Virus record (IMG/VR): IMGVR_UViG_3300045988_165611
Span: 1 to 48,115 of that record
Source: a virus
Reading direction: 5' to 3' (one strand)
Length of the DNA: 48,115 nt
Shown here piece by piece: positions 23,209-47,959 of the stretch. The notes beneath the pieces are model-generated. The model saw nothing but the letters and a program-made list of their open reading frames with translations, was not told where the DNA came from and ran no database searches. Both the position numbers and the translations under genes were made by a program. Position 1 is the first letter of the stretch. Each line of letters begins with the position of its first letter.

Positions 23209-24285
23209 ATGGCATTCCCGAAACTACTACAAAAACTTTTCCAGAACAATGGAGCGGGGGACAAACTCAATCCCGACATCATCCCCGAGATGAATTACCT
23301 ACCGACAAGCGGTGGTACGGTTAACGGCTCGGTAACAATCAATGGTACAACTATCCCCGCTTCCGGCAATATTGGGGCTTATAAAGAAGGCATCAAGTTC
23401 GGTTGGGGTTCGGAGATTTCTCAATCAACACCCAGCGGTTTGAACCTTTGGGCGAAGAAAGGTGATTCGAACACTGTTCTTGCCCTGTACGCAGAAGCGA
23501 AAGGGAATGACAACGGCAATACGCCGGGAATCTACCTGCGTGCAGGGAACGGCACGGCCACAAAGGGTTTGCGCCTCACAACGAGTGCCGCAACAATTGA
23601 TGGGGTAGAAATTGCAACATTGAATACCGCCTCAAGAAATCTTGGGCATACGACGATGGTTGGCCTAGGTTTTGCGAAGGACTCAACAGTTACCCTAGTG
23701 CAATTTTTTCAAAAACTCGCCGAGCATGGATATTCCGAGTTCAACTCTGTATTAAAAATTGATTATTTATACGCAAACTCGGCTTACGTCACAGATGGAA
23801 CAAACACCGTCAAGATTGCCGGTGGCACGCTCTATTTGGGGCAAAATACACACAATCCTTCCAATGATTATGGTGTTGCTTGGGGGTTTTTTGTGCCGTC
23901 AGAGGGAACTAAACTATATCGATTCAGAACATATAAAGACAATTCGCAAGCAACATCAGACTCGCCCCAGCAGAGTATCTACCCGTATGAGTCGGGGGGT
24001 GGCCTCTCCGTCGTCGCCGAGTCCTACAGCGCTAACTCCTGGTACCGCAAATACTCCGACGGATGGATTGAGCAGGGGGGAAAGACCACGGGGAGTAGTG
24101 GGTTTACACTAACGTTCCCGCTCGCATTCAGCAACACAAACTACTCGTTTGTTTGCAACACACAAGGGAACTCCACGGGCTACGGCTACAAGCGTTCTGC
24201 TTGGATTAGCTCACGAACAGCAACGACGGTTACTCTCGGCTCAGACGCAGGCGACCCTGCTATATGGTATGCCTGCGGAAAGTAA
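23209..24285 (+). CDS. Tail fibre / receptor-binding protein with exchangeable C-terminus
   Basis: 358 aa. The conserved fibre motif SWYRKYSDGWIEQGG lies inside the 56-bp inverted repeat. Confidence 0.75.
   Translation: MAFPKLLQKLFQNNGAGDKLNPDIIPEMNYLPTSGGTVNGSVTINGTTIPASGNIGAYKEGIKFGWGSEISQSTPSGLNLWAKKGDSNTVLALYAEAKGNDNGNTPGIYLRAGNGTATKGLRLTTSAATIDGVEIATLNTASRNLGHTTMVGLGFAKDSTVTLVQFFQKLAEHGYSEFNSVLKIDYLYANSAYVTDGTNTVKIAGGTLYLGQNTHNPSNDYGVAWGFFVPSEGTKLYRFRTYKDNSQATSDSPQQSIYPYESGGGLSVVAESYSANSWYRKYSDGWIEQGGKTTGSSGFTLTFPLAFSNTNYSFVCNTQGNSTGYGYKRSAWISSRTATTVTLGSDAGDPAIWYACGK
24025..24080. repeat. Inverted repeat, left arm (56 bp, perfect)
   Basis: TACAGCGCTAACTCCTGGTACCGCAAATACTCCGACGGATGGATTGAGCAGGGGGG is the exact reverse complement of 24557-24612. 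Confidence 0.95.
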
Positions 24286-24612
24286 TTATTTGCCCCAAGC
24301 AACGACAGGGATAGATAAAGTGGCGTTGGCGCTATAGTCTTGTTGCGATACCGAGAAAAGCACCTGTGTTTTATTCACACCTGCAAAGGATACTGTCGCA
24401 TAGTAGGTGCTATCTGAGTCACCCCCTGTGTTATACGAGCCCGTGGCAGATGCCGGACCTCCGATAGCATACCCGTAAACAGCGGTAGAAAAAGGAATTG
24501 CTAGATTAACGCGGTTATTGTTAGATGGCCGCGTAGAGGTAGAGTAGTAAAAAATACCCCCCTGCTCAATCCATCCGTCGGAGTATTTGCGGTACCAGGA
24601 GTTAGCGCTGTA
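24286..24612 (-). other. Silent (start-less) alternative tail-fibre C-terminal cassette
   Basis: The minus-strand frame is open for 108 codons, YSANSWYRKYSDGWIEQGG IFYYSTSTRPSNNN...SIPVVAWGK*. It has no usable start, and its stop at 24286-24288 abuts the stop of the expressed copy. Confidence 0.8.
24557..24612. repeat. Inverted repeat, right arm (56 bp, perfect)
   Basis: Exact reverse complement of 24025-24080. It abuts the stop codon (24613-24615) of the next minus-strand gene. Confidence 0.95.
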
Positions 24613-25056: not shown

Positions 25057-25521
25057 TTATTTTGTTGTATCAAAAATCAACGCTAGTGCGTCTTTTTCTC
25101 TTGCGATTCTTCCAGCCAACTCACTGCCCTCGCTAAGTAGTCCTGCACCCTCGCTGAGAAAGCGTCGGCACTGGGCGTACTCGGCTCGGTAAGAGCGGTC
25201 GGAATTTGCTGACGCTCCGTCGGCACGGGCACTTGCGACGCGCAACCGACGCAACAGATCGTCACGCTCAGCGCGATTAGCATCAGCCCGACGGCTTTCC
25301 AAAACCAGTTTGCTAGTCGCTTCAGATAATCGTCGTTCATAGTCTTTCCCCTGTTCTTTGATTGCTAATGCGGTTTGCTCGCGTTCAGTCGCAATCTGAG
25401 CCTCGTAGCGCGCCTTGGTGAGCCAATGAGCCATGTACGCCGACACGAGGCATAGGACGACGATTAGCGCTGTCCGTGAGTTTGTTTTGAGTAGTGCGAG
25501 GATATTTAAAAGCGTGCTCAT
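25057..25521 (-). CDS. i-spanin (Rz-like)
   Basis: N-terminal TM (ALIVVLCLVSAYMAHWL) followed by a charged coiled coil. The gene follows the endolysin and contains an embedded +1-frame ORF. Confidence 0.75.
   Translation of the reverse strand: MSTLLNILALLKTNSRTALIVVLCLVSAYMAHWLTKARYEAQIATEREQTALAIKEQGKDYERRLSEATSKLVLESRRADANRAERDDLLRRLRVASARADGASANSDRSYRAEYAQCRRFLSEGAGLLSEGSELAGRIAREKDALALIFDTTK
25083..25340 (-). CDS. o-spanin (Rz1-like), embedded in the i-spanin gene
   Basis: Signal and lipobox-like MLIALSVTICCVGC followed by a Pro-rich mature part (ASQVPVPTERQQIPTALTEPSTPS). The real start may be the internal ATG at 25283. Confidence 0.65.
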   Translation of the reverse strand: MNDDYLKRLANWFWKAVGLMLIALSVTICCVGCASQVPVPTERQQIPTALTEPSTPSADAFSARVQDYLARAVSWLEESQEKKTH

Positions 25522-26579: not shown

Positions 26580-26738
26580 ATGGAAATCGTGCGATGTCCG
26601 AAGTGCCATAAACGGCTCTTCGATATGTCTGATGATTTAATCGGTACAATCTCCATTCAGTGCCGACGATGTAAGACAGTGGTTGTTTTCAGTTTCCCCT
26701 CCCTGCACGTGCAACCGGAACCTATTGCCGGTCCGTAA
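26580..26738 (+). CDS. com: Mu Com-like zinc-finger protein (52 aa; not in ORF track)
   Basis: MEIVRCPKCHKRLFDMSDDLIGTISIQCRRCKTVVVF has the RCxxCxKxLF...IxIxCxRCK pattern and Cys spacing of Mu Com. SD AAGGAGAA lies upstream. Confidence 0.7.
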   Translation: MEIVRCPKCHKRLFDMSDDLIGTISIQCRRCKTVVVFSFPSLHVQPEPIAGP

Positions 26739-26819
26739 TTCCAAGGCCTCTGAGCCACCTCTTTTAAGCCAAGCGAGCTTTAAGTAAACCTAAGAGTTTT
26801 CTCTTTTAAGGAGATTACT

Positions 26820-26870
26820 ATGGCTGAATTTGCCTCTAAAGGTGTGGCGGGTACAGGTCTCGGCTTGGGT
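26820..26870 (+). CDS. Exon 1 of the intron-split gene (17 codons: MAEFASKGVAGTGLGLG)
   Basis: SD AAGGAG lies 7 nt upstream. The frame runs into ATG TGA immediately after 26870. Confidence 0.7.
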
Positions 26871-27694
26871 ATGTGACAATGCCCTCTGAATCCTTTTCCT
26901 TAGCGGTTCTAAGGGGTAAAATTAAGTAGTTAAACTACTCTAGGATTGGCTATATGGTTGAAGTTAAGAACGTCATTGGGTACATAGGGCTGTATCTTAT
27001 TGATAGCCTTGGAAATGTAGTATCTCTACCGAAGATTCAAGGTCGTCGGTTACATAACAAGTACAAGATACTCAATACCAAAGTCAATAAGCTTGGCTAT
27101 AAGGAAGTTGCTCTGACGAAAAACGGCAAAACAAAGACTTTGCTTCTGCACCGTTTAATCGCTCAACACTTCGTTCCTAACCCAAACGATTTGCCTTGCG
27201 TGAACCATAAAAATGGCATCAAGGCTGATAACCGTATTGAAAACCTGGAGTGGTGCACGAAAAGCCAAAACACGAAGCATGCTTTTGACAATAATCTAGG
27301 CGGTTTTAAGCTTCGTGCGATTAAAAATCTTGAATCGTGGAACAGATGCCATGCATATCTAAGGATTGTGCTTGAGAAAGATGGAAGAACAATTGAGTTT
27401 TCGTCATCTTTTGATGCCGCTCGCTTCATTGGCGTGACGCAGAGCGACATCACTAGAGCAATAACGAAGCGTCAGTGTTGCCACGGTTACAGAGTGTTTG
27501 GTTTTAAGCTACAAGATTTTGCTAACGGGGAAACCTCTCAGAGGCAATCCCGTGGGAAGCCTGAAAAATCAGGAACCTGTATCGACTATTCCTCGGAAGG
27601 GAAGTAGAGCTGAGTTAACCACAGTTCGAAATGGGATTCGCAGCAAAAGCTGTTAAGAGATAGTCAGTGCCACTGGCGACAGTGGAAGAACATG
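26871..27694 (+). mobile_element. Group-I-like self-splicing intron (824 nt) carrying an HNH homing endonuclease ORF
   Basis: The 5' splice site follows a U in a U.G pair of P1 (GGGU|AU / AUGCCC). The IGS CAAUGCCC (26877-26884) also pairs with exon 2 AUUG. GACUAU (27584-89) pairs with AUAGUC (27660-65), and AAGAGAUAGUCA resembles the group I S element. A GNRA-capped hairpin lies at 27670-27685 and the terminal G is at 27694. Confidence 0.75.
26954..27607 (+). CDS. HNH homing endonuclease (intron-encoded)
   Basis: N-terminus IGYIGLYLIDSLGNVVS is NUMOD4-like. LHRLIAQHF..VNHKNGIKADNRIENLEWCTKSQNTKHA is an HNH motif. Confidence 0.85.
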   Translation: MVEVKNVIGYIGLYLIDSLGNVVSLPKIQGRRLHNKYKILNTKVNKLGYKEVALTKNGKTKTLLLHRLIAQHFVPNPNDLPCVNHKNGIKADNRIENLEWCTKSQNTKHAFDNNLGGFKLRAIKNLESWNRCHAYLRIVLEKDGRTIEFSSSFDAARFIGVTQSDITRAITKRQCCHGYRVFGFKLQDFANGETSQRQSRGKPEKSGTCIDYSSEGK

Positions 27695-28123
27695 ATTGCC
27701 GGAACTGCACTTGCTTTGTTAAATAACGGTGGTTTAGGAGGAATCCTCGGCGGCGGAAATACCAACGCCTACGTGGATTCTTTAAATAGCAAGATTGCCG
27801 AACTCAATGCCGAGAAGTATTCGGATAAGGTCGGAATCGAGGTGTTCAAGGCCGCGCGCGAATCTGACGCGAAAACCAACTCGCGTTTCGAGGAAATCGC
27901 TCGCACAATCGCTGATATGCGTGTCCGCGAAGCGCAGACTGCCGGCAAGATCGACTTGGTGGCCGCCACGGCTACTCAGGGCATTGCTGCGAACTCTGCG
28001 GCGATTACCTGCCTGCAGAACACGGTCGCCGGCATCACGAAGATCGTTGTGCCCAATAGTTCCATCTGTCCTGGGTGGGGGAATGTGACGATTACTCCGG
28101 CCTCTACAACTACTGCTGGCTAA
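27695..28123 (+). CDS. Exon 2 of the intron-split gene (Gly-rich hydrophobic N-region, coiled coil, C-terminal CPGWGNVTITP)
   Basis: In frame with exon 1 after removal of 26871-27694. The track ORF 27692-28123 starts at the ATG formed by the last three intron bases. Confidence 0.7.
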   Translation: MAGTALALLNNGGLGGILGGGNTNAYVDSLNSKIAELNAEKYSDKVGIEVFKAARESDAKTNSRFEEIARTIADMRVREAQTAGKIDLVAATATQGIAANSAAITCLQNTVAGITKIVVPNSSICPGWGNVTITPASTTTAG

Positions 28124-28140
28124 TGTAAGAGGAGGGCATC

Positions 28141-28470
28141 ATGAACATACACGTCAATAAAATCCCTGACATCGTGACTGAGTTCCTAATGACACGTGTC
28201 GTCACAAAAGCGCCTGATTCTGCGATGCAGTTCGGTTTTGGCTTCCTCGTGCCCTATGTGGCCAAGTCGGCCCAGGCTACGGTAAACAATCCGCTGCTCA
28301 AGAACCTCGGCGTAGTGACAGGCGACGGCTTGATTGACCTTGACACCGCTCGTGCCTCGGCCAACGAGGCCTTAGCCAAAGCAGGAGGTAAGGTCACAGC
28401 GTACGGTATTTCTTTTGATCGTAGCGACATCGATGCCCTTTTTGAAATCGCCAATAAGTATGGAGGTTGA
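28141..28470 (+). CDS. Hypothetical protein (109 aa)
   Basis: SD GAGGAGGG upstream. Same cassette as the intron-split gene. Confidence 0.55.
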   Translation: MNIHVNKIPDIVTEFLMTRVVTKAPDSAMQFGFGFLVPYVAKSAQATVNNPLLKNLGVVTGDGLIDLDTARASANEALAKAGGKVTAYGISFDRSDIDALFEIANKYGG

Positions 28471-46422: not shown

Positions 46423-47959
46423 CGTCTTCTTCGCGGACCTTGCTGCGTGTTACGACGACCCCTTAAGGTTCGTCTTGTGGGCATTCCCGTGGGGCACAAC
46501 GCCTGAGCTTTCGCTTGTAACGCTCAAGGAGCCGTGGGCCTCGCGGTATCCCGGTTGCAAGTACGGCCCCGACAAGTGGGCCTGCGAAGTCCTCGACTAC
46601 GTCGGCGAGCAAGTTAGGGCCAACGCCTTTGACGGCGTGCACGCCGTTAAGCCCGTACAGGTTGCCGTGGCTTCAGGCCATGGCTTAGGAAAATCGGCCA
46701 TTACGGCATGGCTCGTCTGCTGGATTATGGCCACCCGTCCGGGAGCGAAGGGTGCGGTGACGGCAAACACGGCTTCGCAGCTTGAAACGAAAACGTTCGC
46801 TGAAATCTCCAAGTGGCTTAAACGTTCGCTTGTCCGAGATATGTTCGATATCAAGGCCTCGTCCGTTGTTCAAAAGGACGAGCCGGAATCGTGGCGAGTG
46901 GACGCTCTTACGTGCCGAGAGGAAAACTCGGAAGCCTTTGCCGGCCAGCACGCCGCATCCTCGACGTCTTTCTACATTTTCGACGAGGCATCGGCTGTGC
47001 CCGATAAAATCTGGGAAGTGGCCGAGGGTGGCTTGACCGACGGCGAGCCCATGTGGTTTGTGTTCGGAAACCCGACACGTAATACGGGGCGATTCAAGGA
47101 ATGCTTCGGGCGTTTTCGTGAACAGTGGAAAACGTTCCAGATTGACTCACGTGAAGCCCAGATTACGAACAAAGAGCAGATTGCCGTCTGGGCCAAGGAG
47201 TATGGGGAGGATTCGGACTTCTTCCGTGTTCGTGTCCGTGGCCAATTCCCGAATGCTTCGACGACACAGTTCATCCCGACCAAACTTGCCGAGGATGCCA
47301 TGGCCCGTCCTGCGCCTGCCAGGCACCGCATTGCTACGGCAATCGTCGGCGTGGATGTGGCGCGTTTCGGCGATGACGATACGGTGATAGTTACTCGCTT
47401 CGGGAAAGATGCGACGACACCCTTTGCGCGTTACCACGGTCTTAGCGGAGATCGAGTCATTGCCTTGGTCAAGGCAAAGATTAACGAGCTGTACCGTGAA
47501 GGATTCGAGCGTGTTTACGTGTTCCTTGATGAGGGGGGCTTAGGCGGAGCCATTGTGGACGTCTTACGTGCTGACGGCTTCCGAGAAGTGCGAGGTGTGA
47601 ACTTCGGCCAAGGTGCGGACGATCCCGAGCTTTACCCTTTCAAGCGCGAGGAGATGTGGGCACGCATGAAGAAGTGGCTTGAGTTTGGCTCCATTCCGAA
47701 TGACCAGCAGTTGCTCGATGATTTGACCGGCATCGAGTTTGAATACAATATTAAAGGGCAACCGAAGCTGGAGTCGAAGGCAGACATGAAAAAACGAGGA
47801 CTGCATTCGCCTGACGCGGCCGATGCCCTGGCGCTTACGTGGGCCTATCAAGTCCGTGAAGTGTCCGACAGAACCGTTGGCCCTGAGCGTGTTCGAGGTG
47901 GCGCCGATACCCCTAGGAAGTTTGACCCCTTCGATTTGAAGTTCTGTACCCGACGATAA
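46409..47959 (+). CDS. terL: Terminase large subunit
   Basis: Walker A VASGHGLGKS, Walker B FYIFDEAS, nuclease domain GVDVARFGDDDT. Confidence 0.9.
   Translation: MSGNDVFFADLAACYDDPLRFVLWAFPWGTTPELSLVTLKEPWASRYPGCKYGPDKWACEVLDYVGEQVRANAFDGVHAVKPVQVAVASGHGLGKSAITAWLVCWIMATRPGAKGAVTANTASQLETKTFAEISKWLKRSLVRDMFDIKASSVVQKDEPESWRVDALTCREENSEAFAGQHAASSTSFYIFDEASAVPDKIWEVAEGGLTDGEPMWFVFGNPTRNTGRFKECFGRFREQWKTFQIDSREAQITNKEQIAVWAKEYGEDSDFFRVRVRGQFPNASTTQFIPTKLAEDAMARPAPARHRIATAIVGVDVARFGDDDTVIVTRFGKDATTPFARYHGLSGDRVIALVKAKINELYREGFERVYVFLDEGGLGGAIVDVLRADGFREVRGVNFGQGADDPELYPFKREEMWARMKKWLEFGSIPNDQQLLDDLTGIEFEYNIKGQPKLESKADMKKRGLHSPDAADALALTWAYQVREVSDRTVGPERVRGGADTPRKFDPFDLKFCTRR

Follow-up and report, generated by a model that had tools for sequence, protein, structure and literature searches.

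A probable mobile group I intron that encodes an HNH homing endonuclease, in a membrane-protein gene of a Sutterella-type phage

In this study, we have analyzed a 48,115-nucleotide (nt) stretch of viral DNA (IMG/VR record IMGVR_UViG_3300045988_165611, positions 1 to 48,115; here called the window, whose numbering is used throughout), in which a small gene in the region 26,820-28,123 appears to be split by an insertion that encodes an HNH endonuclease. We conclude, with a probability of about 0.92, that positions 26871-27694 are a mobile group I self-splicing intron with an IA2-like core, carrying a homing endonuclease of the I-HmuI type. We observed the anatomy of this element, covariation within its helices, its precise presence/absence polymorphism, a co-conversion tract and purifying selection on exon 2. 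The element is of a known kind and lies in a new host gene; its topology is atypical and is common to a large, mostly unannotated family of phage introns. No new mechanism is revealed by it.

The split gene and its uninterrupted homologues

The reading frame of exon 1 enters ATG TGA directly after 26870. Once 26871-27694 is removed, the exons join in frame to give a 159-codon gene that is interrupted at codons 17/18, and the 143-amino-acid (aa) open reading frame (ORF) at 27692-28123 in the list of ORFs is the downstream piece of that gene. Three registers yield an identical joined sequence; the sole one that has both a U at the end of the 5' exon and a G at the end of the intron is 26871-27694. 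An initial annotation of this DNA had chosen that register, with its final G; its exon, intron, helix and ORF coordinates all proved correct, as did the strong Shine-Dalgarno sequence that it placed before the 17-codon ORF (Table 1).

More than 5000 homologues of the joined 159-aa protein exist. Close homologues are 161 to 165 aa long, and all 26 of the full-length homologues that were aligned read through G17|I18 uninterrupted (the vertical bar marks the insertion point); P0008 and P0013, for example, have MAEFASKGVAGTGLGLG|IAGTALALLNN across the junction. At the DNA level, the intron-less allele L001 has GGC|ATC at the insertion site. The evidence that we take to be decisive on whether the gene is split comes from a sister phage represented by three contigs (L406-L408). 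These contigs carry an uninterrupted 161-aa gene from which the intron is precisely absent; they share with the window a holin, a lysozyme, a Com-like ORF and ORFs of 109 and 56 aa (and, in L408, an integrase and a helicase as well), and they are 93-97% identical to the window up to 26848/26851, with identity resuming from 27728. The proposal of the initial annotation that a gene is split here by a group I intron with an HNH ORF is thus borne out, with an exact junction, both by these empty sites and by the comparison with intron-less homologues of the 159-aa protein that it had recommended.

That annotation had also asked whether homologues start at the position of 27692 and lack the upstream extension. 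Instead, the homologues possess the N-terminal extension encoded by exon 1, and conservation of the AUG at the 3' end of the intron (27692) is not seen in L011, L144 or L100. Exon 1 is the best-conserved part of the protein family (alignments A1 and A3), residues A5 S6 K7 G8 V9 A10 being nearly invariant. In public annotation, the host gene is called as a truncated 143-aa ORF and a separate free HNH gene.

Database searches with other queries gave little. A megablast search with 26750-28200 found no match in the GenBank phage collection or in E. coli genomes, and tblastn with the joined protein found none among phages; distant blastn searches of phages with the ORF-deleted intron likewise returned no match, an AT-rich member of the intron family giving short matches only.

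Structure and covariation of the intron core

An Rfam scan of the whole window at the gathering threshold gave no match. When the covariance-model scan suggested by the initial annotation was confined to 26700-27800, Intron_gpI (RF00028) did find the element (35.9 bits, E=3e-7), but below the gathering score; it recognized P4-P6, P7, P3', P8 and P9, and its alignment has a 41-nt insert at the P7.1/P7.2 position. The relatives of the intron score 24-30 bits with the same model. The model expects P2 and then P3 beside J3/4, both of which are without counterpart in this intron family. We did not adopt the P1, P2 and P3 5' strand that Rfam itself puts within the ORF (27478-27525), since the P3 so formed consists mostly of G·U pairs and has no counterpart in L011; it is the pairing of 26888-93 with 27634-39 that covaries instead.

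In an alignment of 14 relatives, 92% of pair cells hold standard pairs, compared with 36-47% when the partners are slid, and 41 of the 61 pairs change on both sides. P3, hairpins A and B, P6a, P7.1, P7.2, P8 and P9 covary in these sequences; P4, P6 and P7 never vary, and therefore conservation, rather than covariation, is what supports them. P3 is changed on both sides in five of its six pairs, and the variants in relatives include GAGUCC/GGACUC, UAUACC/GGUAUA and GACACC/GGUGUC. A covariance model built from the 14-sequence alignment (R1) gives the window intron a score of 165 bits. Among 126 distinct further R1 matches, compensatory change was seen in 53 of 53 pairs, including all six pairs of P3, although this larger alignment was fitted to R1 and is therefore biased towards the structure. 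The ORF-deleted intron gave z=-3.2 in a dinucleotide-shuffle control, and its minimum-free-energy fold recovers P1, the long-range P3, hairpins A and B, P4, P5, P6, P6a, P7.1, P7.2 and P8.

The 5' splice site lies at the wobble pair U26870·G26881 in P1. An in-frame UGA stop (26874-76) is found inside the P1 loop, and the loops of L011, L284 and a set of introns in terL also contain an in-frame stop codon. The P10 guide CAAU (26877-80) pairs with AUUG (27695-98) over 4 base pairs (bp), a helix that is 5 bp long in L284. P1 takes the form GGGU|AU/AUGCCC in the window and L284, GGGU|AA/UUGCCC in L011 and CGGU|UC/GAGCCG in the terL introns. P1 and P10 re-adapt to differing exons: in L011, the P1 extension goes from AU/AU to AA/UU, and a U-A pair of P10 becomes C-G. 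At the other end of the intron, a G precedes exon 2 in L011, L284, L128, L144 and L100.

The helices drawn in the initial annotation fared well in this analysis. P1 and P10 re-adapt with the exon as just described, the proposed P3 covaries and is better than the Rfam model's own P3, P7 holds by virtue of its conservation, and P7.1/P7.2, P8 and P9 all show compensatory changes. What that annotation did not contain is the non-canonical topology, with the P3 strand right after P1 and the ORF in a hairpin between P3 and P4. The gap between P1 and P3 is 3 nt (UCU); P2 is therefore absent. Between the P3 5' strand and J3/4 stand UUUU, hairpin A and hairpin B, in that order, and in the GCUAA that follows hairpin B the last bases correspond to J3/4, the final A doubling as the first base of P4. 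Because the ORF lies in the loop of hairpin B, the ribozyme proper consists of 26871-26923 (53 nt) and 27515-27694 (180 nt), a total of 233 nt that matches the 234-nt ORF-less relatives, with a 591-nt ORF-bearing insert between the two parts. With respect to subgroup IA2, P7.1 and P7.2 are present between P7 and P3' and both covary; the P2 and the P3 5' strand next to J3/4 that also mark this subgroup are lacking.

Table 1. Features of the split gene, the intron and its flanks (window coordinates)
Feature	Position	Strand	Basis
Shine-Dalgarno sequence AAGGAG of the split host gene	26808-26813	+	Sequence; same AAGGAG before the uninterrupted gene in sister phages L406, L408
Exon 1, 17 codons, MAEFASKGVAGTGLGLG	26820-26870	+	Intron-less alleles continuous here
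5' co-conversion tract, 19 nt	26852-26870	+	Diverged from sister phages up to the intron
Probable group I intron, 824 nt	26871-27694	+	RF00028, 35.9 bits; R1, 165 bits; precisely absent in L406-L408
P1 hairpin GGGU|AU / AUGCCC	26867-26884 (26867-72 with 26879-84)	+	Sequence, folding, compensatory change in L011
P3 5' strand GAAUCC	26888-26893	+	Pairs with 27634-39; covariation
Hairpin A CCUUAG-CGGUU-CUAAGG	26898-26914	+	Compensatory change in 4/6 pairs; 96% paired; recovered by folding
Hairpin B 5' strand AAAAUU	26918-26923	+	6/6 pairs covary; loop contains the endonuclease ORF
HNH homing-endonuclease ORF, 217 aa, I-HmuI type	26954-27607	+	Pfam HNH_3, PHROG 59, PDB 1u3e
Hairpin B 3' strand GAUUUU	27515-27520	+	Followed by GCUAA (27521-27525); GCUAACGGGG invariant in intron family
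P4 ACGGGG/UCCCGU enclosing P5 (27534-27544)	27525-27553	+	Rfam alignment; helix invariant in 14 relatives
P6 GG/CC and P6a CCUGA-AAAA-UCAGG	27554-27577	+	P6a: 5/5 pairs changed on both sides
P7 5' strand GACUA	27584-27588	+	Pairs with UAGUC 27661-65; invariant in all relatives
P7.1 (27589-603) and P7.2 (27607-27)	27589-27627	+	Compensatory change in 4/4 and 5/6 pairs; 99-100% of cells paired
P3 3' strand GGAUUC	27634-27639	+	Covariation, folding
P8 GCAGC-AAAA-GCUGU	27640-27653	+	Compensatory change in 5/5 pairs
J8/7 and P7 3' strand, AAGAGAUAGUCA (UAGUC = 27661-65)	27655-27666	+	Matches Rfam consensus AAGAUAUAGUC; invariant in intron family
P9 hairpin, GCGA loop	27670-27685	+	Compensatory change in 5/6 pairs
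Terminal G of the intron	27694	+	3' splice site directly after
Exon 2, 142 codons and stop	27695-28123	+	Continuous with exon 1 in homologues
3' co-conversion tract, 33 nt	27695-27727	+	Diverged from sister phages after the intron

We postulate the following course of events. The gene would be co-transcribed with the Com-like ORF upstream of it, and ribosomes on unspliced RNA would halt at the UGA in the P1 loop, before reaching the core. Folding of the RNA would produce P1, P3 to P9, P7.1/P7.2 and, between P3 and J3/4, the two extra hairpins. Attack by an external guanosine would take place after U26870, paired to G26881 in P1; the CAAU guide would then hold exon 2 through P10, G27694 would be exchanged into the G site and the exons would be ligated, yielding a product that reads ...GLGLG-IAGTALA... 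and a predicted junction GGCUUGGGU-AUUGCCGG, which may also be written GGCUUGGGU|AUUGCCGGAAC. It can further be envisaged that the 217-aa HNH enzyme would nick or cut intron-less alleles near the insertion site and that repair from the intron-bearing copy would bring in the intron together with a few tens of bases of flanking exon.

Endonuclease, mobility and competing explanations

The ORF within the intron was identified by three kinds of match. It scores 41.4 bits with Pfam HNH_3 (cut-off 24.8; 1e-10), matches PHROG 59 at 6e-41 and aligns over residues 3-186 with residues 2-172 of the 174-residue chain of I-HmuI, the SPO1 intron nickase (PDB 1u3e; E 1e-14); in addition, the C-terminal DNA-binding region gives weak NUMOD4 and I-HmuI NUMOD-like matches. 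His85, Asn97 and Asn106 align with I-HmuI His75, Asn87 and Asn96, and Asn84 stands at the position of I-HmuI Asp74. In the I-HmuI structure, Asp74 is reportedly a metal ligand, and roles for His75, Asn87 and Asn96 are likewise said to be established there. As the initial annotation had noted, the HNH/NUMOD4-like ORF runs into the intron core; its final 93 nt overlap hairpin B, P4-P6, P7 and P7.1. Because the I-HmuI alignment stops at residue 186, the C-terminal tail of the protein is probably mere read-through of ribozyme sequence. An identical 217-aa protein is encoded on 18 contigs with at least two gene orders, and the same-site intron of L011 holds, in the same hairpin (B), a version that is 59% identical. 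A possible sequestration of the HNH ribosome-binding site by the P3 strand was considered and found to be unsupported by folding (z -0.9 and -0.6).

Several lines of evidence concern the movement of the intron. A comparison of nine loci shows 2-3 differences in the 824 positions of the intron and 18-53 in the 426 positions of exon 2, which indicates that the intron is much younger than its hosts. In the intron-bearing alleles, 76-89% of the exon 2 differences fall at third codon positions and they result in 1-9 amino-acid changes; exon 2 is under purifying selection, which argues that the exons are joined in RNA. Positions 26838-26870 are identical in eight intron-bearing loci that differ upstream. 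Compared with the sister phages, the intron arrived with about 19 and 33 nt of foreign flanking exon on its two sides, that is, by co-conversion. The empty-site sister genomes and the mapped co-conversion tract together make this a clean example of a recent homing event.

A second kind of movement involves terL. In terL and the structural genes, the window phage, a temperate phage related to Sutterella prophages, has about 70% identity with a prophage of Sutterella wadsworthensis. The terL of that prophage carries an ORF-less relative of the window intron, and the terL of the window (46451-47849) has no intron at the Walker A site. The window and terL introns have in common the P1-loop sequence AUGUGA and differ in their guide sequences; therefore, the ribozyme has moved between genes within this phage group, and its 87% identical counterpart in terL of related prophages documents that jump.

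Some findings weigh against our conclusion. Splicing is something that we infer from sequence, together with catalysis, enzyme activity and target. The RF00028 score of 35.9 bits is lower than the gathering score of 50 bits, and the layout, as deduced here, is non-canonical, P2 being absent and the P3 strand being separated from J3/4 by two hairpins and 591 nt of insert. The replacement of the reported metal ligand Asp74 by Asn84 means that full nuclease activity is not assured, and translation through P4-P7.1 must compete with folding of the ribozyme. Finally, an intron-less allele with flanks identical to those of the intron-bearing allele was not found among viral and JGI metagenome contigs, where the exact ligated junction was sought as DNA.

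The alternative that survives best leaves splicing in place and concerns the means of spread. The intron may have been carried about by recombination between co-infecting phages or by reverse splicing, its own HNH enzyme being inactive or having another role, and the move from terL to the present gene would have happened in the same way. The closest core relatives (87%) would suit this explanation, since they are ORF-less and lie at the Walker A site of terL in related Sutterella-type prophages, which implies that the ribozyme changed sites and that the ORF was gained or lost independently; Asn84 in place of I-HmuI Asp74 points in the same direction. However, 18 contigs carry the ORF intact and with an identical product, its 59% identical counterpart in L011 occupies the same hairpin, and short co-conversion tracts beside the insertion site are the classic footprint of homing initiated by an endonuclease. 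We regard spread without the enzyme as unlikely.

A much smaller chance attaches to a decayed relic that can no longer splice, in which case either the host gene would be a pseudogene or only the 143-aa ORF starting at 27692 would be made. The subthreshold Rfam score, the non-canonical topology and the separate 143-aa ORF annotated by gene callers could all be read in this manner, but all helices of the core are intact and covary with relatives, nine diverged contexts hold nearly the same intron and exon 2 remains under purifying selection in intron-bearing alleles. In addition, the most conserved residues of the protein family are encoded by exon 1, and AUG 27692 is not conserved in L011, L144 and L100. 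The last alternative, a free-standing HNH gene flanked by a short leader ORF and a separate 143-aa gene, draws on the facts that free-standing HNH genes are common in phages and that PHROG 59 is a general HNH family, but it is already contradicted by the intron-less alleles, by homologues that fuse both pieces exactly at the predicted junction, by the 233 nt of flanking non-coding RNA that form a covarying group I core and by the existence of 234-nt ORF-less relatives, and we give it almost no weight.

Related introns, known systems and neighbouring features

A mobile group I intron at this position is one member of a graded series of relatives, found through the HNH protein and the core motifs. 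L011 has a diverged intron at the same codon in a diverged member of the same gene family, with hairpin B (GCUGUA/UACGGC) surrounding its ORF; L284 has an ORF-less intron at the same site as the window intron; and L128:1-155 has a related intron 24 nt upstream (G8/V9) in the same Gly-rich family, its 5' half cut off by the contig end. The host gene family is a repeated intron target, at two sites and in at least four lineages (window, L011, L284 and L128). The remark in the initial annotation that this is an unusual gene for an intron was a fair one, but the case is not a one-off. Further relatives are the 234-nt ORF-less introns of L144:2892-3125, L135, L155, L281:359-575 and L100, with 87% core identity. 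The L144 intron splits terL at Walker A (ASGHGIG|KS), and those of L135, L155 and L281 (Sutterella wadsworthensis 2_1_59BFAA) are near-identical to it. Hairpin B is short (10-60 nt) in ORF-less relatives, whereas that of the window intron and that of L011 have the ORF in the loop.

The motif CUAACGGGGAANCC...AAUCCCGUGGGAA extends the family much further. Contigs with this motif number at least 120 among viral sequences and 32 among genomes, from taxa that include Lachnospiraceae, Clostridia, Bacilli, Sutterella and Melainabacteria, and R1 gave 207 matches in 100 loci (L280-L379, 822 kb of phage or prophage DNA), often 2-5 per locus. Enterococcus phage EF1 (MF001358, L410:1198-2160) carries a family member whose pieces are annotated only as hypothetical proteins. 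Introns of this motif family have the same order of elements as the window intron, namely P1, P3 strand, UUUU, hairpin A, hairpin B, GCUAA and P4. Inspection of ten members showed an endonuclease ORF (GIY-YIG or HNH type, to judge from the translations) located after the P4-P5 motif, at the place expected for P6, or else no ORF; the window intron and L011 differ in having the ORF in hairpin B.

We suggest, at slightly less than even odds, that the window intron belongs to a subclass of group I introns that is structurally distinct, very common in bacteria and phages and possibly undescribed as a class, which has an IA2-like core, lacks P2 and has a conserved two-hairpin module between the P3 5' strand and J3/4. 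Members would lie below the RF00028 threshold, so that the genes they split stay 'hypothetical proteins', and an ORF in hairpin B is so far seen in the window and L011 only. The module itself may consist of UUUU, hairpin A with a UNAUCA-type loop, GGGU and hairpin B. Because the Rfam model scores members below threshold, many other phage genes that carry introns of this family have probably been mis-called in the same way. The family also amounts to a natural experiment in group I topology, in which two hairpins stand between J3/4 and a detached P3 strand; the coding insert of the window intron separates them further, and the 234-nt ORF-less versions are well suited to biochemistry. No relevant paper came up in literature searches on 'P3.1' and on this intron family in Sutterella. 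For the introns of Bastillevirinae, a survey from 2025 reported that phage introns exceed the current subgroup models and that Rfam and GISSD under-detect them (PMC11878797).

Two observations on other members may be recorded. In L079, L108, L151, L156, L289 and L293, among others, hairpin B is about 70-90 nt long and contains TTGGACA...TATAAT-like and GAAGGAG-like strings, as if it provided expression signals for the downstream intron ORF. The viral contig L015 has three group I introns within 1.7 kb, at 563-773, 836-1089 and 2079-2238, which Rfam scores at 101, 96 and 43 bits; a mere 62 nt separate the first from the second.

Among known systems, the SPO1 DNA-polymerase intron that encodes I-HmuI is likewise a phage group I intron, and its HNH enzyme has the fold and the length of the window protein. 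The latter is about 30% identical to I-HmuI and has Asn at the Asp74 position; the host gene of the window intron encodes a membrane/coiled-coil protein rather than a DNA polymerase, the phage (a Sutterella-type temperate phage) belongs to another host phylum and the window ORF is located in a hairpin between P3 and P4.

The cores of the T4 td and nrdB introns resemble that of the window intron in CGACUA, P7.1/P7.2, CGAAA followed by P3', GAUAUAGUC and a P9 hairpin, and td alone has the P4 motif ACGGGG...AAUCCCGU in common with it. The T4 introns share with it, too, a mobile endonuclease whose ORF is looped out of a peripheral hairpin. Together with nrdD/sunY, they are grouped in IA2, and td and nrdB, the latter in its 5' layout as well, have P2 between P1 and P3. 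The window intron differs from td and nrdB in having no P2 and no P9.1/P9.2, and R1 aligns only their 3' cores (36 bits for td and 26 bits for nrdB). In td, the P3 strand of the 5' sequence abuts J3/4 (which is consistent with P3' in the R1 alignment), whereas two hairpins follow the P3 strand in the window intron. The canonical order P1-P2-P3-J3/4-P4 is seen in the terminase intron of Bacillus phage LY2 and in the Rfam consensus, and the window intron differs from both.

For the position of the insert there is a precedent in yeast, since PMC2396411 (Fig. 1 legend) describes COX1 aI5-beta as having a noncanonical sequence between P3 and P4, and a primer quoted in that paper contains the same UAAACGGGGAAAC P4 motif. 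The yeast intron is organellar and protein-dependent; its likeness to the window intron lies in the insert position and the P4 motif.

The host protein itself matched no Pfam, PHROG or NCBIfam family. The AlphaFold model (predicted local distance difference test score [pLDDT], 66) has a membrane helix at 12-27, a long helix at 43-135, which makes up most of the fold, and a disordered Thr-rich tail, so that the 159-aa protein is predicted to combine an N-terminal Gly-rich membrane helix with a long coiled coil. Its gene has ORFs of about 110 and 57 aa as constant companions, and holin and endolysin genes are often adjacent. A role as an i-spanin was rejected, since the 154-aa ORF at 25057-25521 beside the lysozyme gene looks by eye to be the better spanin candidate, with a hydrophobic N-terminus and a charged helical region; that ORF has no PHROG family match. 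The profile of the host family (A3) showed a weak likeness to many haemagglutinin HA2 chains of influenza (best E 8.5e-4) that was judged to be probably compositional. In that alignment, the Gly-rich N-terminus lies against the start of HA2 (the fusion peptide) and the helix against the HA2 coiled coil, an architecture like that of a fusion protein. A 162-aa gene located upstream in L005-L007 was rejected as a paralogue of the host gene because it encodes an unrelated lipoprotein.

The split gene is immediately preceded, both here and in the sister phages, by an ORF for a 52-aa zinc-ribbon protein (26580-26738, +) that resembles Mu Com (PHROG 6417, translational regulator, 4e-8) and may control translation of the split gene. 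A promoter scan found no promoter. In the intron-bearing contig L004 (2790-2917), unrelated sequence has taken the place of the 5' part of exon 1, together with the start codon and the Shine-Dalgarno sequence, and roughly the final 25 nt of exon 1 are left; the contig shows either a gene-killing rearrangement or an assembly chimera. Farther upstream in the window, near the tail-fibre/lysis region, a perfect 56-nt inverted repeat (24025-24080 and 24557-24612) has its arms 476 nt apart, and the region 24025-24612 is possibly an invertible DNA segment, to judge from this resemblance.

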